A stretch of DNA of 64,000 bases. Origin: a virus. Lineage: Duplodnaviria > Caudoviricetes. The stretch is from the IMG/VR virus record IMGVR_UViG_2700988794_000001, positions 32,001 to 96,000 of that record; one strand, 5' to 3'. Below, in pieces: positions 5,712-62,136 of the stretch (position 1 is the first letter of the stretch; each line of letters begins with the position of its first letter). The notes beneath the pieces are model-generated. The model made no database searches. It saw only the letters and a program-made list of their open reading frames with translations, and was not told the DNA's origin. The position numbers and the translations under genes are program-made.

Positions 5712-5891
5712 TACCCACTGGACGTAGGGCTTCTTCAGCGCTATAAGGTTTTGCAGGCATCACCTAAACCTACACGTGGAGAAGCCAATGCCAAGTTTTG
5801 GGAAACGGTATCTGGTTTACCTCGCGCTGCTCACTACCCTTGCAATTGTCGTGGGCGTGAAAGTGCAACAGGTTGCAAACGGAGTACCGTC

Positions 5892-6566
5892 ATGACTACG
5901 CAGATCATTGCGCTGATGGGCGCTGCCGGTTCCGGCAAAACCACCGTATCGAAAAAACTTCAGGCCTATGGCTTCTCCCGCTACCGGTTCGCCGGAACGC
6001 TCAAGCTCATGCTCCGCACTCTGGGGCTGACCGAAGAGCAGGTGGACGGCAGCGAGAAGGAAATCCCCTCCGATCTTCTGTGTGGTCGGACGCCGCGCCA
6101 CGCCATGCAGACCATTGGCACCGAATGGCGTGACATGATCCACCCGCATCTCTGGACGCGGGTTCTGGAAGCGCAGATCGTCAACCAGATCGCCGCCAAT
6201 GAAAGCTACGATCCGCCGCGCCCGTCCTTCATCGTCATTGACGATTGCCGCTTCCCCCACGAGGTGGATATGATCAGGCGTCTTGGCGGCGAAATCTGGT
6301 GCATCCGTCGCGCCCAGACCGAGCCCGGCATCGTTACCCGGTGGGTGTCGAAGCTGCCGTGGCCGCTGAAGCGCTTGGCGGCTTTCGTCCTCAACATCAA
6401 GCCTCTGCATCCGTCCGAACTCTACTGGATGGACATTGACGAGGATGTGACCCTCTACAATAACACCTCCGAAGCCGACCTCATGGATACCGTCGAGACG
6501 GCGATCTACGAGCGCATCGAAGGTCCGACCAAGGACACGGAAAATGAACAACTCTCTCTTCTTTGA
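5892..6566 (+). CDS. Deoxynucleoside monophosphate kinase (T4 gp1-like)
   Basis: GAAGSGKTT P-loop, FAGTLK, TPRHAMQTIGTEW, IDDCRFPHE, HPSE motifs. Confidence 0.9.
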   Translation: MTTQIIALMGAAGSGKTTVSKKLQAYGFSRYRFAGTLKLMLRTLGLTEEQVDGSEKEIPSDLLCGRTPRHAMQTIGTEWRDMIHPHLWTRVLEAQIVNQIAANESYDPPRPSFIVIDDCRFPHEVDMIRRLGGEIWCIRRAQTEPGIVTRWVSKLPWPLKRLAAFVLNIKPLHPSELYWMDIDEDVTLYNNTSEADLMDTVETAIYERIEGPTKDTENEQLSLL

Positions 6567-7730
6567 CGCGGTCAAGCGGTCGCTCTTCGGCGGCTCGCTG
6601 ACGGACGAACAGCGTCGTGGCATGACGGCCATCCTCAACGTCTGGATTGCCCGTGGGACCAACGACGTTCGCCACCTAGCCTATGTGCTGGCCACGGCCT
6701 ACCATGAGACCGGGACACGCATGATCCCCGTCCGTGAGGGCCAGGGCCAGCGCAAGCTGTGGTCCGACGCCCAGGCACGCAATGCCGTCGCGCTCCTCCT
6801 GAAGGCCAAGAAGATCAAGCGCAACTACGCGCTGCCCGGCTCCTATGGCAACAGCTTCTATGGTCGCGGCTATGCCAGATCACCTGGGAGACGAACTACA
6901 AGCGGATGAGCCCGCTTACTGGCGTCGATCTTGTCCGCTACCCCGACAAGGCCCTGGAGCCGGAGATCGCCGCGATCATCCTTATCGAGGGTTCGACCAA
7001 GGGCGTATCGCTGAAGGGCGACTTCACCGTCTATTCGCTCGAAGACTTCATCGCCGGAGACAAGTGCGACTACGTCAACGCCCGCAAGGTCATCAACGGC
7101 CTGGACCGGGCTGGAGACGTTGCCAAGTACGCGCTGAAGTTCGAAGCCGCCCTGGAAGACGCGGGCTATGAGCACGTTCCGGCCAAGGCACCCAAGAAGA
7201 TCAAGGCTACCCCCGCCAAGCTCACCAGCGAGCAGCTACGTGGCATACAGCAGGCCCTGAAGGACAAGGGCTACACCATGGTCGGGCGCGTCGATGGTGA
7301 ATGGGGCGACAACACCGAAGACGCGATCCTCGCCTTCCGGCGCAAGAACGGCCTCCCACTCGTCCCGGTTATCGATGACGAATTCAAGGCTGCTCTCTGG
7401 TCCGGCGAGAACAAGGCCGTCAGCGATGTCCGCTCTACGGCAAAGCTGGCAGACCTGAAGGGCATTGCGCCCGGCGCTTCCGAAGTGGCCCTCCTGAAGA
7501 AGGGAGCTACTTATGTCGGTCTCGGCTCGTTCGCAACCGGCGGCGCGCTCTCGACCGACGACATCACCGGAGTGACCAGCAAGATCAGCGCCGCCAAGGA
7601 ACTGATGGCCATGCTGCCGTCGCCGGGAACGCTCTTCCTCATCGCAGGTGGCGCGCTCCTGCTCTACTTCCTGGTAACCCGCGTGGGTTCGAAGATCGTC
7701 CACGCCTACCGTGAAGGAAGCATCTCATGA
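6544..7730 (+). CDS. Endolysin: GH19 domain + peptidoglycan-binding domain + C-terminal TM; frameshift near 6875
   Basis: LAYVLATAYHET, FYGRGY|QITW..NY, ARKVING.DRA; IQQALKDKGY..GRVDG.WG..T..AI.AF PG-binding motif. Confidence 0.88.
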
Positions 7731-8026: not shown

Positions 8027-8277
8027 ACTGGAACGGCGTCGTCTTCGCGATCTTCATGGTTGCCCTGGTCGCCGTCCTGTCGTCTTGCGTCACCACCAAC
8101 GCGGCGGTTGATCCCGGCAAGGCTCCGCTACCTAACTTCTGCGAAGTCCAGGTCGCCTACCGTCCGCCGGAAGCAGAGTTGCAACATGTTGCCAAGTCGC
8201 CGTACACGGTGGACTATCTCTTGAAGCTCAATCAGTTTGGGCAACAGGTATGCGGCTGGGAGGAAAGTGTGAAATAA
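7999..8277 (+). CDS. Putative outer-membrane lipoprotein spanin (Rz1-like)
   Basis: Signal peptide with lipobox LSSC; overlaps end of Rz-like gene. Confidence 0.65.
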   Translation: MGRKYKKGIDWNGVVFAIFMVALVAVLSSCVTTNAAVDPGKAPLPNFCEVQVAYRPPEAELQHVAKSPYTVDYLLKLNQFGQQVCGWEESVK

Positions 8278-10306: not shown

Positions 10307-10356
10307 TGCAACATGTTGCATTAAGGCTTGACAAAGGAACGGTGCCAAGTTAAATT
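10307..10356 (+). promoter_or_regulatory. Palindrome + conserved promoter
   Basis: TGCAACATGTTGCA, then TTGACAAAGGAACGG..TAAATT. Confidence 0.8.
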
Positions 10357-12340: not shown

Positions 12341-12526
12341 GACATCCGCCCTGCCGTGCAACCCGTTGCATTGCAGGGCTTTTTAGCGTCTAGTGGTAAG
12401 GAGGCGACACACCTACAAGATGTAGTAGGCTTGACATGTAGGCCCGTTAGGGCTTATGAATACCCCTCGATCCGGCCAGGGCACCTAGCAAGGTATCCGG
12501 ATCAAGTCGCACCCAAAGGAATAACA

Positions 12527-13945
12527 ATGCAGCATGTTCAAGTGCATGCGGAGAACGGCTATGTGTACGTTCCCGCCAATACCCCTCTGTCTCGTAAGCA
12601 CGTAGACCAACCCGTGGTCTCAGTGGCGCTCCCCACCGACAAGCGCCTCTATACGCTCAAGGTCAAGACCTTCCTGCATCAGCAAGCGTGCCGCCTCCTG
12701 GCACCTCTCCTCACCGCCGCACAGTTCACCGTCTTCTGCCAAATCTTCGACCGGTCGATTGGTTGGGGCCGGACGCAGTGCTTCACCACCGCCATCAACA
12801 TCGCCGAGGGTAACGGCAAAGACTGGCACGGGTGTGGCGTCACAGAGCGCACTGTAAAGCGCTGTGTGACAATCCTCTGCGAGATGGGCGTGATCTCCAA
12901 GACCTCCACCCGGAACCGTGGAACCCTCTTTACCGTCAACCTCGAATGGAAAGGCGATGAACCGATGCTGTCGATCCCCAAGCGTTTGAAGGGCGAACAG
13001 CCCGCGAAACAGGACCGTGTGTCCCTTATCGCACCCCGGAAAAGGGACATTGTGTCCCAAGGAATAGAAACAGAAAATCATTCCTTCCCTTCGGTCAGTC
13101 ATGATGAAACAGGATACTCGCCGGAAGCGAGGGAACCGGAAGAAGAAAAGGCTTCGCCGGAAGAGAGTGCAGGGAATTCCTTGGCCCGCGAAAATATCCA
13201 GGCCCTGGTAGAGCGCACCAACGCTCGCATCGAGAAGAAGCGGGAAAAGAACGTCGAGCGCGCCAAGCAGAAGGGCAACCCGCTCTCCCTCGAAACCATC
13301 TGGCGTCACGCCGTGGCGATGCACTTCCCGGAGATCGTGGTCGCCCCGGCCTGGACCAAGACGCAGCACGGGATCATCATGGCAATCGCTAAGAAGTGGA
13401 CGCAGGGCGGCAAGCTGGCGGACTTCGCGGCCTTCCTAGAATGGTGCGTCGTCTCGTGGCCCGCCATCATGCGCCAGCAGTTCAAGTGGATGACCAAGCA
13501 GAAGCCGCCGATGGCTCCAGACTTCCGGTTTTGGGCCAAGTTCCACGAGGAATTCCTCAACTGCTACCACTCCGGCAAGCTCTCAAAGTGGATGCGCGCC
13601 GCCGAACGCAGCCGCCTCGAATTCCTGAAGGCCCGTGGCAAGACCCACGAGGAAGCCTTGTTCATCATCGCCGAAGAGCAGGCGAAGGAAGCGATGTCCA
13701 GGGAGAACCGTGAGACCCTGAACGCCGTCCGGCAGACAGAGCAGCGCATCGCCCAACGCCAGAAGATGCTGCGTGAGCAGGAAGATAGGGGCGCTCGCGG
13801 CGTTCCGGTACACCCCAAGAGCGAGGAAGCGAAAAAAGCCTCTGGCGTGCAACCTGTTGCACCTATCCAGGAGCCGTCTTCTGATGTAGACCTGGACGAA
13901 CTGGAAAAGATGCTTGCCGATATTCCGGAGTGGAACGAAGAATGA
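12527..13945 (+). CDS. Putative replication initiator (N-terminal winged HTH)
   Basis: IFDRSIGWG...IAEG...G..ERTVKRCV..L.EMGVI resembles lambda O-type HTH; first gene of the replication operon. Confidence 0.55.
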   Translation: MQHVQVHAENGYVYVPANTPLSRKHVDQPVVSVALPTDKRLYTLKVKTFLHQQACRLLAPLLTAAQFTVFCQIFDRSIGWGRTQCFTTAINIAEGNGKDWHGCGVTERTVKRCVTILCEMGVISKTSTRNRGTLFTVNLEWKGDEPMLSIPKRLKGEQPAKQDRVSLIAPRKRDIVSQGIETENHSFPSVSHDETGYSPEAREPEEEKASPEESAGNSLARENIQALVERTNARIEKKREKNVERAKQKGNPLSLETIWRHAVAMHFPEIVVAPAWTKTQHGIIMAIAKKWTQGGKLADFAAFLEWCVVSWPAIMRQQFKWMTKQKPPMAPDFRFWAKFHEEFLNCYHSGKLSKWMRAAERSRLEFLKARGKTHEEALFIIAEEQAKEAMSRENRETLNAVRQTEQRIAQRQKMLREQEDRGARGVPVHPKSEEAKKASGVQPVAPIQEPSSDVDLDELEKMLADIPEWNEE

Positions 13946-15797: not shown

Positions 15798-18624
15798 TGC
15801 CAGCTATGCGACCACGCCATGTGCAGCTTGAAGAAAAACGACCGGTGCAACAAGTTGCAGGCGCTACCCACATGCGTCGGGCGGAGGAAGGCGGTCGCCA
15901 CACCTTCAGCTTCGGACCCTACGACCACCCGGTAACCGATGAGAAGTGCGGCGACATCCTGGTTGTATGCGATGCGCAGAATTGGGATGCTCAGCGTTGG
16001 GGCTACCCGATGCATCCCGATAGCATGAGGATGTTCGCCAAAGCCGCAGAGAAGGCTGGAGTTCCTGACGGCAAGATCACCTTCCTCGGCCTCTGCCCGC
16101 CCGTGCCGACCCAGGACATCAAGTCCGCCGCCCGCACCTGGAAGCACGTCGAGAAGTTCGTGCCCGGCGTCATCGAGTACATCAATCAGCAGAAGCCGAA
16201 GGTCGTCGTCACCCTTGGCGCGCTCGCCAGCCGTGCCGTCTTCGACCGTTCCGTGTCGATCACCAAGGCCCGTGGCGTCCTCGTGCAGCCGCACCCCCAC
16301 CGCCCTCACGTCTTCCCGATGCTGTCGCCCGGCTTCATTGCCCGCGTCCCGGAACACCAGAAGACTTTCGAAGGCGACATTGGCACGCTCTCGAAGTTCG
16401 TACATGCCGGGTTCGATCCGAATGGCATCATGACGATGGAGACCGACTACCAGTGGTGCTACGATCTCCAGTTCATGATCGACAACCCGCCACAGGCCCT
16501 TGCCGTTGACACAGAAGGCACAGGGCTGCGTTGGCACCAGGACAGCACTCGGAACCTCACCGTACAGCTATCCCCTCGCCCAGGCGTCTCCTATATCATC
16601 CCCGTGGACGAAGCCTATGTGATGAAGTGGGCGAAGTTCTTCCCACCTCGGCTTGCCGGTCGCTTGGCCGGTTGCGCGAGCAGTTGAAGCAAATTCTGGA
16701 AAACCCCGACATCCAGAAGATGGGCCACAACATCAAGTTCGACCATATGATGATCCGCAAGATGGGCATCAATATGCAGAACGTCAAACACGATACGCAA
16801 ATGATGGCGTTCGGTGTTGACGAGAACATGATGTCCAAGACCCTGGACGATTGCGTCCGCGTCTGGGTTCCGCAGATGTCCGGCTATGCCGACGACTTCA
16901 ACACGCACGTTGACAAGAACAGGATGTTCGACGTGCCACCCGAAGACATCCTGGACGAAAACGGCAAGGTCATCCAGTACGGCATGCGCCGATACGCAGG
17001 CGGCGATACCGATGCCACCTTCCGGCTTGCCCGCGCCCTCTATCCGTTGCTTCGGCGCGAGCCCAGCCAGTGGAACATCTACGAGCGCATCCATATGCCC
17101 GCCCTGATGGCCTTCGCTAATCGCCTGGAGCGGTATGGCATGGTTATCGACCAGGAAGCGCTACGCAAGCTCTCTGGCGACGTGAAGGCATGGCTGAAGG
17201 ACGAGTTCCGGGCGCTGATCCGTATGGTGCCTCCTGCCGTCCGCCGCAAGCATCTCGAAGCCGGTCTCAAGTTCTCCCGTGACCAGTTCGTCCGTGATAT
17301 CCTCTTCAGCGAAGACGGCTTCAACCTCAAGCCCCAGGTCTTCACCAAGTCCACCGAAGACCTTTCGGATGAGACCAAGCGCGTGCCGTCCGTCTCGACC
17401 AAGGATCACATGCCCTACTTCGTGACCCGCAAGGACACGGCAGGGCAGTTCGTCACCCGTCTGATCGAGTACCAAAAGACCTCGAAGATGGATAGCACGT
17501 ATTGTGGCAACGAAGAGGAAAGGACCGGGTTCTGGCAATACCTGAATAGCAGCAGCCGCATCTTCCCATCCTTCGCGCTGCACAAGACCAACACAGGCCG
17601 CACCGCATCTAGCGATCCGAACGGCCAGAACTATCCGAAGCGTGGTCAGTGGGCCAAACCGTTCCTGAAGGTCTTCAAGCCCAACCCAGGCTACCGCTTC
17701 GTCGCCGCCGACTTGTCGCAGATCGAACTGCGCATCGCTGCCTGGGAAAGCGGCGATGAAACAATGCTTGACATTTATCGCAATGACGGCGATATTCACA
17801 TGATGACAGCGGCAGCAACTATGCGCCTCTCTGTCGAAGAATTCCTACAACAAGAACCTGCCATCCGTAAGTTTAAACGCTTCGCCGCTAAAGCTGTGAA
17901 TTTCGGCTTCGTTTACGGAATGGGTGCAAAAGGCTTCCGGACCTACGCTAAGACGCAGTACGGCGTGGATTACTCCGAGCGTGAAGCCTACGAGACCCGC
18001 GAACTGTTCTTTGCCACCTACCGGCAACTCATCGCATGGCACGAACGTCGCAAGACCGAAGCACGTCGCCAGGGCTTTGTGTCCTCGCTGCACGGCGCTA
18101 TCCGTCACCTGCCGTCGATCTACTCCAGCGACCAGGGCGTGGCGGCTATGGCAGAACGGCAGGCCGTCAACGCGCCTGTCCAGCGCTTCGGCTCCGACCT
18201 CGGCGTCATGGCCCTAACCCGTCTCTCATGGCAGGCAGACCCGGAAATCATGCGCCCGGTCGGCTTCGTCCATGACCAAGTCATCTGTGAGGCCAAGATC
18301 GGCCACGAACTGGAAGCGGCCAACGCCCTGGTATGGGCTATGGAAAACCCGCTGCTCGAAGAGTGGTTTGGCATCACCGCGCCGCTGCCGATCAAGGCCG
18401 AGCCGGATATCGGCGACACCCTCGGCACCACCCTCGAACTGAACGAAATGCCGAAGAACGAAGACGGCTCTCTGAAGGTTCCCGACTGGTGGAGCGAGAC
18501 TGGCATCGAGTGCGTCAACGTCAACGGCACATGGAAGGCCCCGTTCGCCCCGGCCAAGCCCACATGGTGGAACGACAATGAGGCAGAAGCGCAGGAGCAG
18601 TTCACCCGCTTCCTCCACGTTTAA
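15797..18624 (+). CDS. Family A DNA polymerase with N-terminal UDG-like domain and 3'-5' exonuclease; frameshift near 16668
   Basis: KPKVVVTLGA.A, AVDTEGTGL, GHNIKFD, YAGGDTD, TGRTAS.DPNGQN, ADLSQIELR, AKAVNFGFVYG, FVHDQ. Confidence 0.93.
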
Positions 18625-18625
18625 A

Positions 18626-18680
18626 TGCAACTTGTTGCACCATTTTAGGTGTTGACAAAGGATCGGTTCCAAGTTAGATT
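18626..18680 (+). promoter_or_regulatory. Palindrome + conserved promoter
   Basis: TGCAACTTGTTGCA; TTGACAAAGGATCGGTTCCAAGTTAGATT. Confidence 0.85.
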
Positions 18681-22116: not shown

Positions 22117-22150
22117 TGAGTAACCGGCTTCTCCCGGTGCAACAGGTTGC

Positions 22151-23619
22151 ATGCGCATGAATGACATGGTCACAAACGTAGGGAATTCTACGCCGCTAGT
22201 GGGCTCACTCGGCGGCTGGCTCTACGTGCCTTACGATGTCATCGGCGACTATGCCGCCCTGCATCGGGAGAAGACGGCCTTAACCTATCTCCCGAAATTC
22301 GCAGAGACAGACAATGACACAGTTCGCCTATATGAAGATGTCCCTCGCCGCAGGGTTCTCGGCGTTCCGCGCGCTTACGGCCTGGAGCGCTTTGGTCATC
22401 TGCTCAACCCGCGAGACCTCCGTACCTTTGGCGAGCGTATGGGTCCGATCCCGCGTCTTCCAAGTCCAGATCATCCAAGCGTAAAAGACCCGCATGCGCA
22501 GGCCAAGTTTATGGCCGACCTCGAAGCCGCCGCCCGCCAGCACTTTCACTTTCTGGCAGAGGCACCGACCGGCTCCGGCAAGACCGTGTGCGCTATCCGC
22601 ACCGCTGCCGTGATCGGGCGCAAGACCGTGGTTAACGTCCACCTGGAGCGTCTTCTAGGCCAGTGGATGGACGAGATACACAACAAGACCGGCCTCCCCT
22701 ACGACCGCATCGGAATGGTGCAGGGCGACAAGTGGGATTGGCGTGATAAAGATTTCGTAGTGGCGATGATGCCCACGTTGGCCTCGCAGAATGGTCGCAT
22801 CGATCCGGCCTTCTTCCAGTCCTTCGGCACGGCTATCTATGACGAAGTGCACAGGGTCGGCGCTCCCATGCTTGGGCAGACGGCGCACCTCTACCCGGCT
22901 CACTATCGTTGGGGCTTCTCCGCCACGCTATACCGCAAGGACGGCGGCGAACGGACCTTCTACTGGCACATTGGGCCGGTGCGCGTGACCTCCCAGGCCG
23001 CTGCCCTGCCGATGACGGTCTACGTCAAGAAGTACACCGCATACGGAAAGCTATGGGGCAAGAACCACGGAAGCCGGATGCAGTGCCTGTCGCAGGATTG
23101 GTCCCGGAACCAATTGCTGGTGGTCTTCATCCGCCGCTTGCATCGCGCCGGGCGTCAGACGCTGATCGTCGGCGACAGTGTTCAACATCTACAGCACCTG
23201 ATGGACCTTTGCGCCCAGGCAGGTGTTTCCCGTGAAGACATGGGACAGTTTACGAGCGAGCGGCACATACTTCAGGAGTACGTGAACGAAAAAGGGGAAA
23301 AGAAGACACGGGTTCGGAAAATCAAGATCAAGCCGGAAGAACTGGATGCCGTTAAAGAGAACGCGCAACTGATCTTTGCCACGTATGGATGATGACGGAA
23401 GGTATCGACATACCCCGTCTCGACGCTGGCATCGACGTGCTACCACGAGGAGACGCAACACAACTTATTGGCCGCATTCGTCGGCCACGCCCTGGAAAGC
23501 CAGAACCTGTCTGGATCACCCTACTCGATACCAAATGCTTTATGAGCAAGAAGTATTTTGAGCGCAGGTGCAAGGACTATCAGGCTACCGGTGCGATAAT
23601 CAGAGAAGGTGCAATATAA
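22151..23619 (+). CDS. Superfamily 2 DNA helicase; frameshift near 23390
   Basis: APTGSGKT, YDEVH, GFSAT..RKDG, EGIDIPRLD, QLIGRIRR. Confidence 0.9.
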
Positions 23620-41575: not shown

Positions 41576-41977
41576 TCAACCACGGCAACTCAGGAGAACC
41601 ACCATGGCCGTCGTCAAGTACAACGCAGAGACCAACAAGCATGACGTGATCATCTTCGGCGCGGACACCGTGTCGTTCGATCACGAAGACGAGGCGGAAG
41701 GCTTCGCAGAGTTCGTCAATGGAGGCGACAATGACTGAGAACGAATACCTGATCGCCCGGTCCCGCAAGTACACCGTGGTGGAGGTTCTCCTCTTCCTGG
41801 GGATCGCGGTCACCCTGTTCTTCCTCGGCTGGCAGAAGGTCGCCATCTGTTTTCTGATTTGGGCCTGCTTGTCCCTGATCACCCACCACAGACGCGTGAA
41901 GCGTTACTACTACATCGACTAACCCACAGGGGAGGGCTTCGCGGCTCTCCTCTGCAACTTGTTGCATGGAGGCAACC

Positions 41978-42490: not shown

Positions 42491-42603
42491 ACACTAGAGA
42501 GGAGAGAGACAGATAGAGATAACAGAGACCAATCTCTCTCCTCCCTGATAGCCTGCAACATGTTGCAAATTCTGATAACGAAACCAGAAATGGATCACTC
42601 CCT

Positions 42604-43266: not shown

Positions 43267-43317
43267 TGCAACATGTTGCACTTAGGCCTTGCCAAAGGAT
43301 CGGTTCGTTGTTAATCT
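43267..43317 (+). promoter_or_regulatory. Palindrome + conserved promoter
   Basis: TGCAACATGTTGCA; TTGCCAAAGGATCGGTTC. Confidence 0.8.
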
Positions 43318-44086: not shown

Positions 44087-44138
44087 TGCAACTTGTTGCA
44101 ATATATCCGTTGACAAAGGATCGGTTCGTTGTTAAGTT
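44087..44138 (+). promoter_or_regulatory. Palindrome + conserved promoter
   Basis: TGCAACTTGTTGCA; TTGACAAAGGATCGGTTC. Confidence 0.8.
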
Positions 44139-45303: not shown

Positions 45304-45355
45304 TGCAACCTGTTGCACGGTAGTGGTTGACAAAGGATCGGTTTCTCGTTAGATT
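45304..45355 (+). promoter_or_regulatory. Palindrome + conserved promoter
   Basis: TGCAACCTGTTGCA; TTGACAAAGGATCGG..TAGATT. Confidence 0.8.
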
Positions 45356-45381: not shown

Positions 45382-47729
45382 ATGAACACCACCTTCGCCC
45401 TGATCGCCTTCCTCGCCCTCAACCCTGCCGAACCGCAGGAGATGGACGCCTTCAAGATCGACTACGCCATGAGCGAGCAGGATTGCTACGAGGCAGTCAA
45501 GCACGTGCAGCGCTTCGAGATCGCTCCCGGCGTCACTGCCGTCATCCAGCCCGAGAACCTCTCATGCGAGGAGGAGTACAAGTGAGCGAGATAATCCTGA
45601 AGGTGAGCATCACCCTGTCCGATGAGCCTAGCCCGGACGAGCGTCGGGATGTCGAGCATTACATCGCCATGGCGCTGAAGAGCGTAGAGGGCATGCGTCC
45701 TACCCGGCGCGCGCCCCTCACCATCAATCGCGCTTTCATCGTGGAGGAAGAGAAGTGAGCATCGCCGCCATCATCGCAGCCGCTGCCGCATCCACGCAGA
45801 TGCAGATCATGCATCAGGAGCAGTTGCACCAAGCCGCCGCCTTCCTGTTGCGCCCGCAGCCCACGCGCTTGTCAGTGAGCAACGTCGATACCAGGAAGGC
45901 CGATCCTTCTATCCCGGCCCCTACGGAGTGGAAGCCATGAACACCGCCCTCCTCAAACTGGCAAGCGTTCGACGCCAAGGGTATCGCCGCTGGGACGTGC
46001 CCGGCAAGGCTGACAGATACGTCGCCTTCAAGTACACCACGCTCTACGCCAGCGGCAAGGCACGTGAGCGCTGGCTGGTCTGGCATATCCATCCGCACCA
46101 TAGTGGCAGTGGCGGCATCCATGTTGACTACTCGCAAAGGCACTATGCCGAGGCGCTGGATAAGGCGCTGACATGGGTAGGCCGTGCGTTCGATCCTGCC
46201 CGCGCAGTAGGAAGGAAGAAGCCATGACCCTGAAACTGTCCAAGCATATTCTCGATAGCGAGAAGAAAACCGAGGTCGCTATCAACGAGCTTGCTACGTG
46301 GCTCTACGAGAACAGTGCGGCCTTCGATGAGCCGGGCACGGTAAGCACGCAGTCTGCAAGGGCGCTGGCGGAACGCATGATAGAGGAGGCAAGCCGTGAG
46401 AAGCATCCGTCTCGATGACGCCCGGCGCACAGAGAGCCCTACCGAAAAGGTGATGATGTTCACCTGCCCGGAGCGCGACTTCATTGAGGGCATGGAGAGT
46501 GCCTGGAAGCTCGGCTACCTCGCAGGCGGCGGCAAGGATACGTTCGTGGATGTAGCATGGGGCATGTCAGAGATGCGTGCGCTCCTGATCGCCAGAGGAT
46601 ACGAAGCGTGAAACATGTTGCACGGCGAAACGTCCGCCTCGACGGGGAGCGCCAGCGGCCAGCCCCTGTACGCTACTACCAGTGCTCCGGCTGCAACCGG
46701 CGCTGCGATGATCCAGTATATGACTTGGATATGATCCGGGAAGCAGGGTGTATATCGTGCTGCCCTGAACGCAAGATGAAGCTATACGTCGATCACAAAC
46801 TGGTGAAGAAGTAGCCATGAGAAAAGTACGCCTGGAAGAACCGAAGCCGCCGTCCGAGACCACCATCGTCACGCTGTCTGTCCCGGCAGGCATCGACGTG
46901 GCCGATCTGGTCCGGCGCTACAACGAGCAGTGCGAAGCCAATGGCCTGCCGCCGATCCTCGACGCCAAGCTGGTGGATATCGAGAAGGCCAGATGGCCTG
47001 CCGCCTACCATGAGTACCGCGAGCGCCTGGAATACCTCAACCGTGGCAAGAAGCCCTCCACGCCCTTGACCATGGAGGTGTTCGGCACCAAGCTACAGCA
47101 GATTATGGAGCGCACCGGATGGCCTGCCAGTTCTGCCACCGGCCTGATCCTCATACAGGAGCACCCAGACATTGCCTAAGAGACATGTTCGCCTGGACGA
47201 TCAGCGCCAGAAGCCCAAAGTCAAAGAGACCAAGCTGAAGATCACGCCCCTATCCGACCTCACCCGAGAGGAGCTTGTCGAGCGTTGGGCTGGCATCAAT
47301 CGTATGAGCGTGGACATCGAGAGCATCGACTATGCATCGCTCATCCGACCCTCGGGCGCTGCCATCACTCCGGCCAGGGTACGCAACAGCATGATAGTCA
47401 ACACTGACGAGGGCGCTGTCTTTCGCTTGGAACTAGACGGCAACCCTATAGAGCTAACGCGAGATGTCATAGGCGGAAACCGCAGATCGGCACAGATCGG
47501 CAGGGACTACGGCATAGGCGGGTACGACACCGCCGAAAGCGGCTTCCTGCAAAGGGCACAGGAGATGACTACGCCGCGTCCTCCTGAAGCTCAGCGCGCC
47601 CGGCCTCCCTTTCCCGGCTGGTCAAACTGGTATCTCTCCCACACCGACGAAGACGGCAACCGCCATGAGGTCAGGGTGCATAACACCTCGGGCAACACAG
47701 AGCGCCGCGTGATCAGACGCATCCCTTGA
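45382..47729 (+). other. Operon of nine small genes (starts 45382, 45582, 45755, 45937, 46224, 46396, 46608, 46817, 47172)
   Basis: Overlapping starts and stops; last four begin with an R-x-[VI]-R-L-[DE] motif. Confidence 0.65.
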
Positions 47730-47733: not shown

Positions 47734-47785
47734 TGCAACCCGTTGCAACTTAGGTGTTGACAAAGGATCGTTCCCAAGTTAGATT
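47734..47785 (+). promoter_or_regulatory. Palindrome + conserved promoter
   Basis: TGCAACCCGTTGCA; TTGACAAAGGATCGTTCCCAAGTTAGATT. Confidence 0.85.
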
Positions 47786-47815: not shown

Positions 47816-48978
47816 ATGGCAGACGAAAGCTACATTGTCCTCTACCGCCTTGGCGGATGGGCCACTTGCGAGTGGAGACGCACCGCCAACATCATTGGCA
47901 CCCTGGAGCGCGCCGAGGCTGAAGTCGCCTCGTTGGAGCGCATGGGCTTCAAGGCCATTTACCGCACCCAGGCGGAGCACGACTTGATCGGCTTCCCGCT
48001 CGGCTGGCACTGGAAGGTCGTAGACCACGCCATGGACACCATCAACATCACCCCGTGGGAGAGCCAGCACAGCATCCACCCGTCGCGCTTCGAAGAAGTC
48101 CGTGCCCTGGTCGAGAGGGAGCGCCTGAAGTGAGAAGCTTCCAGGAGAGCAAAGACGCCATGCTGCACCACCTCGACGGCGCAGGCGAGCTTGGCTGGAT
48201 ATTCTCGCGGCTCTCCGCCTATGAGAAGGAAGTGGCGCATGCGCTCATCTCCGAGGGGCTGGCAGTGATCGCCAACAGTCGTCTTGTGCTGACAGAGGAA
48301 GGAAAGGAGCACCTGAAGTGAAGCCAGCCGTAGGTCAACAGGTCAGAGGGCGCTTGCCCTTCATCACGGGCATCAAAACCTGTGTCATCGTCGCCCGGCG
48401 CGTACCCAAGGAAGGCGAGTACGCCATGAGCAGGGACGGTTCGTTCTTCCGGCGGCAGGGCAGCAAGTTCCTCTCTAAGGTGGACGCCGCCCGCGAATAC
48501 TGGATCATAGAGGAAGTGAAATGACCCGAGAGCAACTCGAAGCCATGCGCAAGAGCGTCGAGACCAGCTTCCACTTCCATACGCGAGCCAAGGACAAGGC
48601 CGAGTATGATCGGAAGATGAACCGCAACGACAGTAGCCCGGAACGCGACATGCACCAGACGGTGGCCTGTGTCTGCAACGTGTTGCACAAGGCGCTTGTC
48701 GCCGCCATCAACGTCACGGCTGACGACAAATGAAGCGGCATGTCCGCCTAGACGACAACAAGCCCCGCCAGGGCAAGCGTAGGCCCCAGAGCGACTATGA
48801 GGCCTACCTGGGGCGGATATGCGGCTGCATGCACCCGAACGCACACCCGCCCTGCTCCGGCTGCACGAGCGCCATTGACGAAGAGCAGTTCGAAAAGGAA
48901 ATGGCCGAGGAACTGGCAGACTGCCTGTCCACCTATAGGGCCATAAGTCATATCATCGAGAGGCACCATGACTACTAA
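47816..48978 (+). other. Small hypothetical genes (starts 47816, 48130, 48318, 48521, 48730)
   Basis: Coupled GTGA/ATGA junctions. Confidence 0.6.
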
Positions 48979-49645: not shown

Positions 49646-49687
49646 TTGACAAAGGATCGGTTCCAAGTTACTTTGCAACATGTTTCA
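49646..49687 (+). promoter_or_regulatory. Conserved promoter with a variant palindrome downstream
   Basis: TTGACAAAGGATCGGTTCCAAGT; TGCAACATGTTTCA at 49674. Confidence 0.75.
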
Positions 49688-49700: not shown

Positions 49701-52700
49701 ATGACTAAGAAGCCCACCATCACCATCGTCCTCAAGCCGGTCGAGCCCACCGCCGACGAACTGGCATGGGACCAGAAGGTTCGCAACGAAGCCGCACGCC
49801 GAGGAGGCGTCTATTAATGAGCTACAGCACGCTCTACATTCTCAACCAGAAGAGCACGCGCGAGGTCGCCGAGTACCGCAACGGATGGGGCAGCGGCCCT
49901 ATGTGCTGGGATTACCTCGCCGACAAGTACCTGGGGCATCTCAACTTCACTGACTATAACCGCACCGATTACATCGGCTTCGAGCGCAAGTGGAAGATGG
50001 TCTGGGATTTGGCCAACGATCCCAAGCTCCAGCGCTGCGAGCACATCGCCATGCGCATGACCTTTGACGGCGCATACGCTGCCAACGCAGACCTGAAAGA
50101 AGTCGGCGAGCTTTGCCAAGAGTTCTTTACCCTGGTCTGCAAGGACACGAAGCGGCTCGGCATGGTCAACCACTTCATGGTGCTCGGCCTCGACTTGGTG
50201 AAGCTCTCGAAAGAGCGGCGTCGTTCCCGGCACATGCGCGGCGCAGTGCTGAACTGCACGTCTGTCAATAACGTCTGGTGGACGCCGACCCAGGAACTGC
50301 TCGGCAAGGCGTGGTCGATCATGGATGAGTTCCGGTCTCAAGAAAAGGAATGGCTCGATGGCCTACGGTGATTACAATGGCCCTGACAAGCCCGACAAGG
50401 GCCATGAGGGCGGTTCCTGCAACAGAGGGCGGTGCCAGTCCTCTCCGGCCCTCTACTACAACCACGGCTCATTCTCGTGGTACTGCCTCGATTGCCGGAA
50501 CCAGATCGCCCTCGACCCGGTCAACCGCAGAAGCTGGCAGAAGGACTTCGAGCCCACGTGCCATCATCAGCAGTTCGAGACCCGCGCCGAGATGGACAAG
50601 CGCAAGGCCGAGGCGCACCTCTACGAGGAGTTCGATGACTGCGTCTGGAGCGGCCTCTACTGTAACAGCGTGACCGCCCACGACATGATGATCGACCTGA
50701 TGATCAAGCATGACCTCGGCTTCATGCAGAACCCCGGCGGCGGACAGTTCACCCACCGTGCAACAGGTTTCAACTGCCAAGTCACCTTGTGTGACGAAGT
50801 CCTGGACCTGAACACCCTCCGCAACGCCATCAAGGAGAAGTTCGGTGCCTCCACTGAATAAGAACGCCGCCTTGCTCGAAGCCATCCGTGGCGATGGCGA
50901 GCACGGCACCATCAAAGAGCACCGGGATTTGCTCATCAACCTCCGAGACGGCGCGCTGAAGGGCGGTCATTTCGAATGGGCAGTTCCCCTTTCCCACACC
51001 ATAGCCTACCTGTCCAAGCTGGCAGAGGCCGCAGGAGTTGAAGTCTGATGCCACAAGTTTACATCCCCGAAATCGGCGACCTCTGGAAGCTGGAAACGCC
51101 CTGGGATTTCACCCTTTATAACGAGTATCGCAACAGCGATCTCTGGGAAGCCTGAACGCTGACCACCATCCGTCACTCCAGGCCGTCCGCGACCAAGTCG
51201 CCGCTGTGGACGCCGAGATGAGGGCTCTCGAAAACAGCATGATCACGCAGCCCGTCCCTCATACCGTCTGGCGCAGCGGACGCTACGAGGAAGTCACCCA
51301 CCAGCGGAAGGTCTTTCCCAGCGCAGAAGTCCAGAACCGCTTCTACGAGTTGCGCAATGAGCGCTACGGGCTCTGGAATAACCGCAGCATACCGGCCACC
51401 CTCCCGCGCGGCACAATCCTCCGGGTGGATCGCATCTACATCCGCAAGGGCAACGAGGATTACTCCTCGCTGTCGTTCTACATCACAGAGACGGCCCATG
51501 CGGCGCTTCAGCCGGTCAAGACGAAGAAGGGCTTCAAGAAAGGCCGGAAGCGTTTCTGGGCCAAGCTCGCAGAGGTGAACACCCTCCGCGTCGAACACGT
51601 GCAACCTGTTGCAGAGGTGGCAGCGTAATGCGCTCTTGGTCGATCCAGGTCCACTACCAGACGCAAGACGATGCGGGGCGCACCTTTCGCGCTACCGCCG
51701 TCTTCCACTGCGAAGCCGCCGACATTCCGTCCGCCTATCAGGCGGCAGCAGAAGCGTTCGGTCCCGACAAAAAGCTTGGCGCGATCATGCCGGGCAAACA
51801 CTTGAGGTTCCCATGACTGTCTTCGACGCCAGCCACTATACGTGGCCCTATTCGGTCAAGTACCTGCAAGAGACGCCGATGTTCTCCGATTGGATGATCT
51901 TTGGCGAGTACCCTGGCACTGACCTCGTGGATATCGCCGACACTGCGCGTGGTAACTCTGACATCATGCTCAAGGTGCCGCGTGCCAAGGCCGAAAAGAT
52001 CGTGGCGGCTCGCGAGGAGTTCGCCCGCAAGCTGCTCGTCATAATGAACGATACGGAGCCGACATGAACGTGCAGAACCAAGTCATCTCAGCCTGATCCG
52101 GGGTTTGGGCTACCGGGTGGCGCGTGGCTTGCCATGGTGGCTTGCCGCGCTTGTCCTCCTCGGCTTCTATCTCTTCGGAGGCAAGGCATGAGCAAGAACC
52201 TCGATAAAGGATGGCGCTGCTTTCACTGCGATGAGTTCTTCGAGCACTCGCAAGCGGCCCGTGAGCACTTCGGCTATACCGAAGACGCCAAGCCCGCCTG
52301 CCTGATCGCCAACGCTGATCGCGGCCTCCTCAAGCAACTGAGAGAGACCGAACGCGAGCTTGCCAACCTCTGGGTATCCGTGCACAACGAAGGCACTGAA
52401 GCCGCCCGCGCAATGCTGGCGCAGGACAGTCGGCACTACACCCAACTCATCCAGGCTGAAGAAAGCGGATACGCTCGCGCGCTCCGAGACGCCGCCGAGG
52501 CGCGGGAATTCCGGCACGGGCAACACCTCTTCAACAAGGCCCAAGAGCTTGGGTGGAAGCAGGACGATACAGAAGGCCCCTACGAGTTCGTATCCCGCAA
52601 GCATTACGAGCAGGGATGGGAAGATGCCAAGAAGCAGGAGGGCGGAGAGCGATGATCACCAAGATAAGAATGCTGGCAGCGACAACGCTGATGTGGATCG

Positions 52701-55118: not shown

Positions 55119-55175
55119 CTGTTGCAACCTGTTGCATGCCGCGCTACGGTAGATTTAGCAACAGGAGAGGGCTCT

Positions 55176-57036: not shown

Positions 57037-57091
57037 TGCAACACGTTGCACCATCTTAGTCCTTGACAAAGGATTGTTCCCCTGTTACTGA
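57037..57091 (+). promoter_or_regulatory. Palindrome + conserved promoter
   Basis: TGCAACACGTTGCA; TTGACAAAGGATTGTTCC. Confidence 0.75.
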
Positions 57092-58689: not shown

Positions 58690-58758
58690 CAGCGTGCAAC
58701 ATGTTGCAAAACCCTCATTGTGTGCTATGGTCCTATAGCTACACATGAGGGTTTTTCT

Positions 58759-59295
58759 ATGCGCATGATTTATGGGGTTGCATACGCATTCTGGCTACTG
58801 TTCCTCTCCAGTGCAACAGTTGCACCAGCGCAGACGTTCACCACGCCGCCATTCGGCTACACGCTGTTCTGCGCCAAGTACAAAACCAACTGCGCCAGCA
58901 GCGGCCCGGCCTCCATCGCGCAGACTGCCAAGCTCATGGCCGACCTGAAGCTAATCAACGCCCGCGTAAACGCCGCGATCACCCCGACGCCCGATGCATA
59001 CGAAAGCTGGGATTTATACCCGAAGCTCGGCGACTGCGATGACTTCGTCATGACGAAGCGAGATGTCCTGATCAAGATGGGCTACCCTGTGTCGGCGTTC
59101 CGGCTCTACGTGGTCGAGACCGGCTCCCGCGAGCTACACCTCGTCTTGGTTGTATCCACCGACAAGGGCGATCTTGTTCTCGACAACCTGAAGCAGACAA
59201 TCGTGCCTTTGCAGGCCTCCGGCTACACCCTGGTCAAGCACAGCACCGAAAATCCTAACGTCTGGGTTGTCGATAAAGGCTATACCAGCACTTGA
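58759..59295 (+). CDS. Transglutaminase-like cysteine peptidase (BTLCP/LapG family) with signal peptide
   Basis: L..IN..VN..I, W, GDCDDF...KR..L...G.P, H.VLVV.TDKGDLVLDN; C-H-D triad intact. Confidence 0.88.
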   Translation: MRMIYGVAYAFWLLFLSSATVAPAQTFTTPPFGYTLFCAKYKTNCASSGPASIAQTAKLMADLKLINARVNAAITPTPDAYESWDLYPKLGDCDDFVMTKRDVLIKMGYPVSAFRLYVVETGSRELHLVLVVSTDKGDLVLDNLKQTIVPLQASGYTLVKHSTENPNVWVVDKGYTST

Positions 59296-59345: not shown

Positions 59346-59726
59346 ATGACCATCAACGAAGACAGTGCAGCCCAGCGTGACGCCCGTCGCCGCAAAACGC
59401 TCGACATCATTGCCAGCAACATCCGGTTCCAGGGATACACCCAGGCCCTGAATTCCGCCAGGGAAAAGCATGGTATCGAGGCCTACTGGCGCGAGGTTGA
59501 CGACTTTGCCGATCAGCTTGATGCCGAAGAGGCGGCGCGCAAGGCGCAGGAGGAAGAGGATGCCCGCTTTGCCGCCCTCTCCGACACCGAAGCGGTCAAG
59601 GAACTCAGCAAGGCCCGGCAGGCATTCGCCTCCACCATGGTCCGTGTCCGGGATAAGGGCCTTCGCGTCACCCTGACGGTGACGGACAACCGCCTCGGCT
59701 TCGAAGTCGTGAGGCCGATCTCTTGA
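59346..59726 (+). CDS. Hypothetical protein
   Basis: AGGAG RBS. Confidence 0.65.
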   Translation: MTINEDSAAQRDARRRKTLDIIASNIRFQGYTQALNSAREKHGIEAYWREVDDFADQLDAEEAARKAQEEEDARFAALSDTEAVKELSKARQAFASTMVRVRDKGLRVTLTVTDNRLGFEVVRPIS

Positions 59727-60280
59727 CACGCAAGCTTTTCCTCGATCTCGACGGCGTCATGGCCGACTTCGACACGCACTTCTATCAGTGCTTCGATTGC
59801 CATCCTCCCTCCAAGGGTGGCGTCAGCGACGACGAACTGTGGCGGCTCGTGCACGGCCACGGCTCATTCTTCCGGACCATGCCCATGTACGACGGGGCCA
59901 AGTCCTTCTTCGATATGCTGGTCGCCTACGGGCTTAACCCGATCATCCTGACGGCGGCATCGAAGAAGCACTACCACGACATGGCCCGGCAGAAGCGTGC
60001 ATGGGTACGCGGGAACCTCACCACCGAACACCTGATCCTTCCTGTCCAGGGCGGCAGCGCCAAGCCTCTCTTCATGCATGCGCCCGGCGACGTGCTCATT
60101 GATGATTGGTGGCGGAATTGCGAGCGCTGGATGGAAGAAGGCGGCACGGCAATCCACCATACCGACTTCGCCACCACCTCGCTCCGGATCGGCATGATTT
60201 GGGGCATGGACAGCAGGCGCGAGAGCCAGGGCCTGCCCTTCCAGCCGGTCTACACCGAGGAGGATTTCCTCAATGTCTGA
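59723..60280 (+). CDS. 5'(3')-deoxyribonucleotidase, HAD family
   Basis: FLDLDGVMADF, ILTA, QKRAWV, K, LIDDW..N...W...GG..I.H. Confidence 0.85.
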   Translation: MTRKLFLDLDGVMADFDTHFYQCFDCHPPSKGGVSDDELWRLVHGHGSFFRTMPMYDGAKSFFDMLVAYGLNPIILTAASKKHYHDMARQKRAWVRGNLTTEHLILPVQGGSAKPLFMHAPGDVLIDDWWRNCERWMEEGGTAIHHTDFATTSLRIGMIWGMDSRRESQGLPFQPVYTEEDFLNV

Positions 60281-62136
60281 TGCACTCGTGAGCAAATGGT
60301 GGATGGCGCGCTCGCTGTCCACCGCAGAGCGTGCGACCTTGACGCCCGAGCAGAAAGCCGAGCGCCGGGCGCAGGCAGTCCACTGGCGTCTCGAAGATGC
60401 CGAGAAGAAGCTGACAGTCAGCCGCCGCAAGCGCATGACACGCTGGCTGAACCAGTGGTTCCGTGGCGAAGTCATGCGCGAACTACTCTATAACGAGGAA
60501 ACCGGCGGCTTCTACAGCCTGAAGGCCTTCATCCGCAGCGAATTCATCGACGCCGTCCGGGTGGCACTGCGCGGCACCGATCAGGCGTCCATGCTGGAGA
60601 GGATCATCCGTGGCGAGGTCGGCAAGGTTCTCAGAGGCAACGCCTACGGCACCGACGCCGATGGGCAAGCGAAAATGGAAGAATACATCCAGAAGCTTGT
60701 CAAGGAAGAAGTCAAAAAGCAGGTGATGAGCAGCCTTAGCATCGACATCGCCGTAACGGGCCGCGTCTTCTCGCCTCCGGCAGGGCAGCGGCGCGTTGAT
60801 CTGGGAGCACCTGAATAATGGCAATGAAGCATATCAGCGACAAGCAGGTGTGCGAGGCCTACCTCGCCGCCCGGCTCGACAGCGAGCGTTTTCCTTACGA
60901 CTACCTCATGGAGGTGACCGGCCAGCCGTTCAAGGTCTGCTACCGCTGCATGGAACGCGCCTGTGATCGCGGCATGATCGAGTACGGCGTCTCGCTGCGC
61001 ACCGGCTGGCTAACCGAGTACGGCTTCCGGGTGGCGGAGATCGAGCCCTTCAAATGGTGCGAGGGGAAGGAATTCGTGCCGATCCCTTACAAGCCGCCCA
61101 ACTTCAACCCCGCCCTGGAGCGGATGGCGATGGACCTCCTCAACGGTATTGTTGACGACATTGAGGAAATCCTCGTCAAAGGACACAACGGAGAGAAACG
61201 TGACTGAAATTCCCTACCCGCACGCCAGCACGGAACCGCTGGAGACCATCAGGTCCAACGAATGCGAAAGCCAGCACGGCTCGCTCTGCACCCGGCGCTT
61301 CCAAGCGTTCTGGAACGAGATCGTCCGGCTCCGCGATAAGGTATCCGAACTGGAAGGCGCAAATCCTGCCAAGGAAGCGTTGCAACTGTTGCAGCCCGCA
61401 ACGCCAGAGCAGCGCGCCAACATCGCGCCGCCCGAGAAGCCGAACGTCGTGGCCAGCTACTATCACGAGTTCGTCATGACGCCGGACACCATCGACATCG
61501 AAGACCAGGGCATGGCGATGATCGTGCACGCCGACGCCGATACGCCGGACAGCGATCCGAACACCATGGCCGTCCGGTTCCACTCCTGGGATGAAACCAA
61601 GGAGCATGAGCATCTCCGCTCGTTCGCTGGCAAGTTCGTCACCATCACCGTCGAGGCGTTCAATGTCTAATAGCGTCCTTGCGCCGTGGATCGGCGAGCT
61701 TGGCCTTCAGCAACAGTCCGTTCTCATCCTCGCCTTGCGCGGGCCGGACGGCGACAAGAAGCATACGCCCTTCAAGCACCTCCTCCGGCCTTACCGAGGC
61801 ACGATCCTGAAGGCGGCGAAGTTCAACCGCATGCTCCTCATTGACGAGGAGGCCGACAGCTTCATGACCATGGAGAACTTCGGCGACCCGGTGCGTTGGA
61901 ACTACGTGGTCAAGGACTTCCTGGAAAACGAGGCAGACGGCTCGGTCCTGCACCACTATACCCACTTCATGCACGCCGCGCAGATCATCGGCTACAAGCA
62001 TCCCGAGGTGGACTACCGCGACCGCTGGCAATGGCTCTACATCCAGTTTTGCAACAGGTTGCACGTCAACGTGGAGACCGAAGAGCAGATGGATCGCCGC
62101 CTCTGCGACTGGAACAAAGTGTTCTGGACCTCTTGA
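60273..62136 (+). other. Hypothetical genes (60273..60818, 60818..61207, 61200..61670, 61663..62136)
   Basis: Coupled ORFs. Confidence 0.65.

Follow-up and report, generated by a model that had tools for sequence, protein, structure and literature searches.

About a dozen operators are recognised by KorB on the plasmid RK2, Noc has tens of scattered sites, and T4 PeSL cassettes and bacterial repetitive extragenic palindromic (REP) elements are repeated promoter-plus-stem-loop or palindromic units found at gene boundaries. KorB, a member of the ParB family, is described as binding palindromic operators located 4-10 bp or 45 to >1000 bp upstream of promoters and as silencing plasmid-wide (PMC11790492). 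Similarly dispersed are the cluster A mycobacteriophage stoperators (L5 gp71-type), which are asymmetric, oriented with transcription, and bound by the monomeric immunity repressor of temperate phages (PMC9283540). A study of the T1-like phage TLS describes 21-nt intergenic repeats, the role of which its authors did not establish and which they discuss as stoperator-, enhancer- or UP-like (PMC11447400); the general phenomenon is therefore already known. Here we describe the palindrome TGCAACNNGTTGCA, which recurs throughout a 64,000-nt stretch (bases 32001-96000; hereafter the window) of the 109,558-bp virus record IMGVR_UViG_2700988794_000001, the whole genome of this Rhizobium phage being referred to as G000. 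With a probability that we place at roughly 0.6, these palindromes are double-stranded DNA sites for a symmetric, phage-encoded binder, of which a protein with a predicted ParB-type fold is the leading, though not certain, reader.

The palindrome is present in 30 perfect copies in the window, the first at 5864 and the last at 62050, against an expectation of 0.02 and a maximum of 1 in 100 dinucleotide shuffles; the initial annotation's count of 30 perfect copies, with a chance expectation far below 1, is exact. Genome-wide there are 47 copies, as compared to none of a reversed control pattern. A further 12 copies in the genome have a 1-base centre (TGCAAC[A/T]GTTGCA, 13 bp), and no other spacing of the half-sites (0, 3-8) occurs in G000. 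Conservation of the site is close to all-or-none: beside 59 perfect sites (47 + 12) stand nine one-mismatch sites (0.3 expected from 20 shuffles), two-mismatch copies are at the chance level, and in five of the seven 14-bp one-mismatch sites the change is C3->A or its mirror, G12->T. Both the four 13-bp variants and the four TGAAAC/GTTTCA variants reported initially are real sites, of the 1-base-centre and one-mismatch kinds, respectively. The symmetry extends into the flanks (K-TGCAAC-NN-GTTGCA-M), with G or T before the site in 38/47 copies and C or A after it in 38/47. The centre is free, but CG is never seen (0/92 sites in G000 and its relative RHph_I4).

The phage family to which G000 belongs consists of 75-110-kb siphophages with alpha- and gammaproteobacterial hosts, and among named relatives Rhizobium phage RHph_I4 comes closest to G000 (nucleotide identity 84% across part of the genome, 93% in PolA). 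Relatives were sampled as 80 IMG/VR loci around PolA homologues and, for 12 of the 20 relatives bearing a G handle, as whole genomes; 11 of these 12 were analysed, G012 being dropped from all protein-family and spacing analyses because its low G+C content defeated the orientation and gene-calling heuristic. Family-wide figures cover 16 whole genomes, with 23 further relatives, 20 of them with a defined motif, serving for the upstream-site comparison; in all, 36 relatives were usable out of approximately 450 in IMG/VR.

The pattern noted initially in the window holds for the full genome and across the family, in that each of the 16 genomes carries a lineage-specific palindrome in 16-59 copies. 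RHph_I4 has 45 copies of the G000 motif and Aeromonas phage HJ05, the PolA of which is 48% identical, has 16, while the exact motif is absent from Agrobacterium phage JP1, Rhodobacter phage RcMenchie and Pseudomonas phage SM1. JP1 carries 33 copies of TGCAAANNTTTGCA (TGCAAA type) and RcMenchie 21 copies of TGCAATNNATTGCA (TGCAAT type), and each of 11 further whole genomes has its own palindrome in 18-48 copies. Among these further genomes the arms are TGCAAC (with a 2-base or 1-base centre), TGCAAT, TGCAGG, TGAAAT or TGAACC, and additional types are TGACC-N3, TTGCA-N5 and ATAAC with 3- or 2-base centres; across the family the centre measures 1-3 bases (up to 5 as written for G018). The centre dinucleotide is likewise specific to the lineage, and of nine other tabulated genomes five have it in both orientations on the coding strand (AA 25/TT 17 in G009, CC 22/GG 12 in G002, CC 14/GG 10 in G003, CA 11/TG 11 in G016, and TG 13/CA 9 in G014); in G007 it is mostly the symmetric CG. 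The structural module has been swapped in G005, G006, G011 and G018, with the replication module and the palindrome system retained. In G009 (TGCAGG[AA/TT]CCTGCA; e.g., sites 4546, 16392 and 46159) many sites lie 0-5 bp from start codons with AGGA, within the palindrome, at Shine-Dalgarno distance, and the palindrome of this genome may double as a ribosome-binding site.

The arms of the sites are under strong purifying selection. Specifically, 43 of the 59 sites could be aligned through their flanks with RHph_I4 (some of these alignments may pair paralogous cassettes), and all 12 arm bases are kept in 42 of the 43, as compared to approximately 4 of 43 expected unchanged at flank-level divergence; identity is 99.0% in the arms, 72.5% in the centre and 82.5% in the flanks. 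The sites are also evenly spaced. The coefficient of variation of their spacing in G000 is 0.52 versus 0.98 for random placement, the largest gap is 4443 bp, and none of 2000 random placements reaches either the evenness or the largest-gap value. Even spacing is significant (P<=0.02) in 10/16 genomes and not significant in HJ05, G002, G006, RcMenchie, G016 and G007. In G000 the 13-bp copies lie mainly in long structural genes, where they fill the largest gaps between 14-bp copies.

The sites of the window and the candidate reader gene are listed below in window coordinates; sites are given without a strand, and -35 refers to the conserved promoter considered after the list.

5864..5877: site, intergenic, 14 bp upstream of the start of a dNMP-kinase-like gene
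10307..10320: site, with the -35 of the conserved promoter 7 bp downstream
12357..12370: site, within a strong terminator-like hairpin upstream of the initiator-like gene (-22.2 kcal/mol, z -4.7)
13848..13861: site, in the O-like initiator gene
15846..15859: site, in the UDG/PolA gene, 49 nt from its start
18626..18639: site, 1 bp past the PolA stop codon; a -35 follows after 12 bp
22138..22151: intergenic site ahead of the helicase gene
24550..24563: site, in RecA, 49 nt from its start
27697..27710: site, 8 bp ahead of the promoter (27719-27747) of the gene for the candidate binder
27795..29150, plus strand: candidate binder gene, 451 amino acids, with a predicted SH3/KOW-like N-domain, disordered linker, ParB/KorB-fold helical domain and C-terminal helices
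28407..28862, plus strand: predicted ParB/Spo0J/KorB-like DNA-binding fold (residues 205-356; model pLDDT 88.8)
29232..29245: site, flanked by an intrinsic terminator and a promoter whose -35 lies 8 bp away
32658..32671: site, intergenic, past a terminator-like hairpin
34403..34416: site, coding sequence
37226..37239: site, at the called start of an IbrB-like ParB_N gene
38650..38663: site, 1 bp past a stop codon and 18 bp ahead of the next start codon
39933..39946: site; a -35 follows after 8 bp
40771..40784: site; a -35 follows after 8 bp
41292..41305: site; a -35 follows after 9 bp
41953..41966: site; a start codon follows after 11 bp
42554..42567: site, intergenic
43267..43280: site; a -35 follows after 8 bp
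44087..44100: site; a -35 follows after 9 bp
45304..45317: site; a -35 follows after 9 bp
47734..47747: site; a -35 follows after 9 bp
48674..48687: site, coding sequence
51600..51613: site, coding sequence, 15 bp ahead of the stop codon
53356..53369: site, 9 bp upstream of a -35
55123..55136: site, intergenic
57037..57050: site; a -35 follows after 12 bp
58695..58708: intergenic site with a terminator-like hairpin after it
62050..62063: site, coding sequence
1685..1697: 13-bp variant (1-base centre), in the large tail J-like gene
5329..5341: 13-bp variant, intergenic
58812..58824: 13-bp variant, coding sequence
61381..61393: 13-bp variant, coding sequence
29916..29929: intergenic site with one mismatch (TGAAAC arm)
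46609..46622: intergenic site with one mismatch (TGAAAC arm)
49674..49687: site with one mismatch (GTTTCA arm), immediately past the -10 of the promoter at 49646
50759..50772: site with one mismatch (GTTTCA arm), coding sequence
8180..8193: one-mismatch site (last base C), coding sequence

Most sites lie between genes (33/47 of the 14-bp sites and 38/59 of all sites, non-coding DNA making up 12-13% of the genome), and 21/59 fall within coding sequence. The copies that had been placed inside genes at the outset, namely those at 13848 (initiator-like), 15846 (UDG/PolA), 24550 (RecA), 34403, 48674, 51600 and 62050, do indeed lie there, and in-gene sites are read in frames that give harmless peptides (VQxVA, LQLVA, xATVA, VQQLQ). 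Many sites start 0-8 bp past a stop codon; others end 11-18 bp ahead of a start codon and therefore leave no room for a promoter. Of 177 called genes 172 are on one strand, and all credible genes are on the plus strand, the long open reading frames (ORFs) of which have a third-position G+C of approximately 0.75; long minus-strand ORFs resemble antisense shadows.

G000 contains 28 copies of a conserved sigma-70-like promoter (TTGNCAAAGGA...TAGATT), several of which are also recovered by a generic promoter scan. At 15 of the 28 a site ends 7-12 bp upstream of the -35, mostly 8-9 bp; within the window the 13 gaps are 7, 12, 8, 8, 8, 8, 9, 8, 9, 9, 9, 9 and 12 bp, in agreement with the thirteen copies placed at this distance by the initial annotation. 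Several of the 13 site-less promoters have a terminator T-run at the position of the site instead. The same order (site, approximately 8 bp, TTGACA) is found in G005 with a different promoter sequence. Because 44/59 sites have no promoter nearby, promoter control is not the sole role of the array. As a separate observation, the early promoter (at window positions 10328, 18652, 27719, 29254, 39955 and others; 28 genome-wide) is conserved beyond its hexamers, through a spacer, TTGACAAAGGATCGGTTC...GTTAGATT, and part of the 5' leader, which suggests either a second factor or recent spread of a cassette.

The extended similarity among the 15 site-plus-promoter units, together with the clustering of these units in the region of small early genes (window 39-58 kb), would be expected if the palindromes had been passively left behind by duplication of a regulatory cassette (an early promoter with its palindrome, as in T4 PeSL), or were recombination boundaries, without a binder of their own. 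We regard such an origin as highly improbable, since 44/59 sites have no promoter, 21 sites lie in coding sequence, where insertion of 14 bp is impossible, and arms remain intact in 42/43 orthologous sites while centres and flanks drift. Neither the even spacing nor the recurrence of the same architecture with different sequences across 16 genomes fits this explanation.

An additional alternative is that the palindrome acts as an RNA or single-stranded DNA hairpin, whether as a processing, stability or termination signal in long one-directional transcripts or as a replication hairpin. Consistent with such a role, complementarity of the arms is preserved through changes between relatives, the loop is N1 or N2 in length, T precedes the right arm in 31/47 G000 sites, and many sites lie 0-8 bp past a stop codon or just ahead of a ribosome-binding site; moreover, in JP1 a -10-like element precedes approximately 10 sites by about 10 bp, which puts these sites at the probable 5' ends of transcripts. 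One site is part of a strong terminator, yet among four copies folded this holds only for that at 12357. The other three, folded as isolated RNA hairpins, have little stability (-3.1 to -3.6 kcal/mol, z -0.45 to -1.07), no better than shuffled sequences, and Rfam gives no family match in the window; the sites, in short, lack the stable hairpin with a T-run, or membership of a curated RNA family, that marks a terminator or RNA element. Furthermore, one stem sequence, and not just a structure, is common to all copies within a genome, centres occur in both coding-strand orientations in 5/9 other genomes, and sites between a terminator and a promoter would see little transcription. A hairpin function is thus very unlikely. 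Because the stem is fixed in each genome, the flanks are symmetric, asymmetric centres are mostly free in orientation, and copies occur between terminator and promoter, a double-stranded DNA site read by a symmetric protein is the better account. The dimeric-regulator binding site proposed initially accordingly stands as regards a symmetric double-stranded site with symmetric flanks, lineage-specific centres mostly found in both orientations, and arms under selection; its regulatory, roadblock or organising role is one that we infer.

The initial annotation also named a host factor among possible binders. In favour of a host protein, of LacI type or another global regulator, the outer bases TGCAA-N4-TTGCA with a CG centre in JP1, RcMenchie and HJ05 appear to resemble LacI-family operators; the CG centre is, on the other hand, found in 0/92 sites of G000 and RHph_I4. 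Identical motifs occur in Rhizobium and Aeromonas phages and different ones in Rhizobium and Agrobacterium phages, and five Rhizobium genomes (38 Mb) contain a single site, about the chance level. We consequently give a host reader scarcely any credence. That phages of Rhizobium and Aeromonas share a motif, that phages with related hosts carry different ones and that host genomes lack the site all favour a phage-encoded reader, and we are reasonably confident that the palindromes are double-stranded DNA sites for a symmetric binder encoded by the phage.

The main rival to a regulatory DNA-binding protein holds that the sites are recognition sequences for a DNA-acting phage enzyme or machine, such as a nicking or cleaving endonuclease, a modification enzyme, a Chi-like signal for a helicase-nuclease and RecA, or a replication or priming signal, with the evenly spaced sites marking phage DNA as self. 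The all-or-none conservation (59 perfect, nine one-mismatch, two-mismatch at chance), the even spacing with 1-base-centre variants filling long genes, and the 21/59 sites in coding sequence are all in keeping with this proposal, as is the chance-level occurrence in host-genus genomes (1 site/38 Mb), which follows from the 12 fixed bases of the motif. The phage also encodes RecA, an SF2 helicase, a Cas4-like exonuclease, RuvC, a second resolvase, an HNH protein and ParB_N nuclease-type proteins. The enzyme-site proposal does not predict, however, the fixed 7-12 bp to the -35 at 15 promoters or the conserved site upstream of the candidate helix-turn-helix (HTH)-fold gene, and Pfam scans find no methyltransferase domain in G000. 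To our knowledge there is no Chi, priming or nick signal with 12 fixed palindromic bases. On balance we consider an enzyme-site role improbable, though deserving of more weight than the alternatives above.

With respect to the identity of the binder, clustering of proteins from the 16 genomes yields nine families present in 16/16 (an AAA ATPase, DUF2997, a 122-amino-acid protein, PolA, primase, helicase, RecA, the product of the gene at 27795, and an SSB-like protein with a zinc ribbon and DDxIPF tail) and four more in 14-15 (DUF1257, DnaB, resolvase and exonuclease). The 27795-29147 product (451 amino acids; hereafter the 27795 protein) is modelled as a whole with a predicted local distance difference test (pLDDT) score of 69 as an SH3/KOW/Tudor-like N-domain, a disordered charged linker, a long helix, a helical domain and C-terminal helices. 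Modelled alone, residues 205-356 reach pLDDT 88.8 and a predicted template modelling score of 0.83. Among 48,161 chains only eight match this model at Z>=5, four from Raf1 and four ParB-family DNA-binding domains: ParB-parS 6s6h (Z 8.4; root-mean-square deviation 4.2, 114 aligned), Spo0J 1vz0 (Z 7.6), KorB-operator 1r71 (Z 6.5) and KorB 8qa8 (Z 5.9). The next matches are VirB, SopB, pNOB8 ParB and P1 ParB (Z 3.9-4.5), and the top Foldseek rows for the domain are Spo0J-parS, ParB and Noc, all with E near 1. On the basis of these models the central domain is predicted to have the HTH-containing ParB/Spo0J/KorB DNA-binding fold, at Z scores in the grey zone.

Two further characteristics single out this family. 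Firstly, the 27795 domain has the highest ratio of within-class (TGCAAC) to between-class identity, 1.45, as compared to 1.11-1.33 for 12 other universal families (RHph_I4, as a near-duplicate of G000, was excluded from this comparison), and segments of the protein track the motif, GW[S/A]KAKEL in TGCAAC phages versus GWTKASKIA in eight TGCAAT phages. Secondly, the phage's own palindrome lies 75-162 bp upstream of the 27795-family gene in 12/16 genomes, whereas the next best universal gene, the AAA gene, has it in 7/16 and the rest in 0-4 (14-16 genomes per gene). Palindromes lie upstream of 9-26% of genes overall, giving a binomial P of 1e-7 (p=0.15) or 6e-5 (p=0.26). Among the further relatives the palindrome is found within 250 bp upstream of the 27795 homologue in 12 of the 20 with a defined motif (of 23). 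In the window the order is site (27697), 8 bp, promoter (27719) and gene start (27795), and since the site lies upstream of the putative binder's own gene, it looks like conserved autoregulation. By its universality, identity ratio, predicted fold and upstream site, this protein is the best of the four candidates named in the initial annotation, and we judge the chances that it is the binder of the palindromes to be about even.

The other named candidates fare less well. The HTH protein at 23619 has a recognition helix that differs widely among phages with identical motifs; it was found in 32 of the sources searched, including phages without a detected repeated palindrome (approximately 20-kb PolA locus), and was not found in RcMenchie, and it is rejected as the specific reader. 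This protein (23619-24092, 158 amino acids) has a conserved arginine-rich N-terminus, RNxRRRxRYxxDPxYR, which resembles arginine-rich motifs of the lambda N type, followed by an excisionase-type HTH. ParB_N-like proteins, suggested at the outset as ParB-like binders, are present in 16/16 genomes by hidden Markov model search, but their match to Noc, ParB and KorB is limited to the N-domain, with GHGR, GHTR or GHHR boxes in place of GERR; no HTH is seen in them, and their four subtypes do not follow the motif. A presence/absence screen for proteins restricted to TGCAAC phages gave no clean candidate, and p11972, the primase zinc domain and the SSB-like protein, viewed by eye, show no class-specific pattern.

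Several observations weigh against a symmetric reader and, in particular, against the 27795 protein. With regard to the sites, the G000 centre usually extends one arm to TGTTGCA, which together with the T preference described above amounts to some strand bias; centres are one-sided in JP1 (CA 9/TG 0) and HJ05 (TG 8/CA 1); two half-site spacings per genome (N1 and N2 in G000, N2 and N3 in G020) are unusual for a rigid dimer; and 13/28 promoters lack a site just as 44/59 sites lack a promoter. With regard to the protein, Raf1 alpha-domains, which do not bind DNA, match the model at Z 9.9-7.3, the top score exceeding that of ParB, and Z 6-8.4 for the ParB fold is a grey zone for helical domains. 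With either the full-length protein or the domain as query, Foldseek against the PDB returns nothing at E<=0.001; a comparison by hhalign with five rhizobial ParB/RepB proteins gives a probability of 15.9%, in the wrong region; and Pfam, NCBIfam and PDB sequence searches with protein or domain come back empty. The ParB N-terminal CTPase domain with its GERR-type box is absent, the N-terminus being SH3/KOW/Tudor-like. RcMenchie and L265 share the TGCAAT core with G016-type phages and nonetheless have quite different putative recognition segments, and the upstream site is missing at the family's gene in 4/16 genomes and 8/20 relatives. Finally, tests of co-variation are confounded by shared ancestry, and gene calls come from our own codon-usage heuristic.

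Set against the systems described above, the array is closest to the KorB operators of RK2, which by analogy serve as the working model and are a nearer parallel than stoperators. Both are perfect 13-16-bp palindromes dispersed over a mobile genome, some near promoters (4-10 bp for KorB and 7-12 bp for the phage) and others far from them (PMC11790492), and the phage candidate appears, from its model, to share the fold of the KorB DNA-binding domain (1r71, Z 6.5; 8qa8, Z 5.9). The phage differs in having 59 evenly spaced sites, many of them in genes, in a candidate without the CTPase domain or detectable ParB sequence homology, in that no KorA-like partner was identified, and in being a phage without lysogeny genes found, not a plasmid. 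A likeness extends to ParB-parS and Noc with its binding sites, in which a dimeric HTH domain reads a 16-bp palindrome; here the phage differs in that ParB_N domains reside on separate proteins with altered boxes, no ParA was found, and sites are genome-wide and not confined to an origin-proximal zone.

The stoperator analogy drawn by the initial annotation holds for dispersal, in that tens of near-identical 13-14-bp sites lie genome-wide, mainly in short intergenic gaps (38/59 intergenic versus 13% non-coding), and repressor specificity likewise diversifies among relatives (PMC9283540, PMC6550527). It fails for architecture, since the phage sites have palindromic arms and flanks and are largely orientation-free, with centres facing both ways in 5/9 other genomes, where stoperators are asymmetric, singly oriented and bound by a monomeric repressor. 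Nor were lysogeny genes seen: as initially reported for the window, no integrase or CI-type Pfam family is found at E<=0.01, in either the 113 window proteins or the 59 other proteins of the genome (172 called), though small fast-evolving repressors could escape such a scan. TLS offers a dispersed repeat in a virulent siphophage that uses host RNA polymerase, but its repeats are direct, oriented, exclusively intergenic, approximately 76 nt upstream of start codons and non-palindromic (PMC11447400). PeSL and REP units differ from the phage core, which is only 14 bp, fixed in sequence and also present in coding sequence; 21/59 sites inside genes depart from the extragenic-only habit of REP, and Pfam scans of the 172 proteins show no transposase family at all, the RAYT type (Y1) included. 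Literature searches for the motif strings returned only unrelated matches (supplements may hold repeat tables), a Rhodobacter phage paper covering the RcF cluster contains neither 'palindrom' nor 'motif' in its text, and the papers found on relatives, which are genome announcements, yielded no description of the sites. The novelty lies in an evenly spaced array of palindromes that extends into genes, in its diversification across the family and in an orphan candidate reader of predicted ParB fold.

Additional features of these genomes were noted in passing. GANTC, presumably a CcrM/HinfI-type site, occurs 0 times in both G000 (109.6 kb) and RHph_I4 (108.4 kb) and is nearly absent from JP1 (9) and RcMenchie (6), while HJ05 has 195; HJ05 has 0 GATC versus approximately 290 expected, and ACCGGT occurs once in JP1 and 0 times in RcMenchie. 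These depletions represent strong site avoidance, unconnected with the palindrome. The ribonucleotide reductase region (window 30250-32430) holds three ORFs in different frames (209, 137 and 389 amino acids) versus one 805-amino-acid gene in RHph_I4, and could reflect a broken gene, frameshifts or assembly error; similarly, a ParB_N-like gene at 34658-35292 appears as two overlapping ORFs (73 and 143 amino acids) versus a single 213-amino-acid gene in the RHph_I4 annotation, possibly through a frameshift or sequencing error. Ahead of the initiator gene (window 8500-12337) stand four genes, encoding the AAA ATPase (557 amino acids), DUF1257, DUF2997 and the 122-amino-acid protein, three of which are in 16/16 genomes and DUF1257 in 15. 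The family-universal protein at 21316-22113, classed as unknown in PHROGs, has a CxxxxxxCPxC zinc-ribbon motif and an acidic tail ending DDNIPF or DDDIPF, which we take to be the E. coli SSB tail motif; judging from its sequence, it is probably a gp32-like single-strand-binding protein of the phage.

Returning to the preferred reading of a phage-encoded symmetric binder, we infer binding, dimerisation, a physiological effect with its direction, and any partnership with ParB_N proteins as follows. A dimer of the 27795 protein would bind every palindrome, site and reader specificity having diversified together within the family. At roughly half of the conserved early promoters, the putative binder's own among them, copies 7-12 bp ahead of the -35 would let the protein tune or shut the promoter, and the remaining sites, at even intervals of approximately 2 kb between and inside genes, would load the same protein along the whole one-directional 110-kb chromosome, where distal sites might act as roadblocks, silencers or organising self-marks on phage DNA. 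A KorB-like regulatory role for the array, argued by analogy, is tentative. Considerably more speculative, and on present showing unlikely, is a divided ParB system in which an orphan ParB-fold HTH protein without CTPase reads approximately 20-60 even, lineage-specific, centromere-like palindromes virtually absent from the host and recruits separate ParB_N-type proteins. If that were true, these proteins would coat, silence or organise the whole viral chromosome and could tell phage from host DNA for nucleases, recombination or packaging, and the rapid joint divergence of site and reader would act much as immunity groups do.

A plasmid (KorB) and temperate mycobacteriophages provide known examples of dispersed operator arrays; here such arrays, maintained even inside genes, run through an entire family of large siphophages, and in G000 itself no lysogeny genes were found. 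The 27795 protein provides a concrete candidate reader from a family without a known assignment, and the natural series of matched site and reader variants (TGCAAC, TGCAAT, TGCAAA, TGCAGG, TGAAAT, TGAACC, ATAAC) could show how DNA-recognition specificity evolves. The array could, moreover, reveal chromosome-wide control or self-marking in lytic phages.

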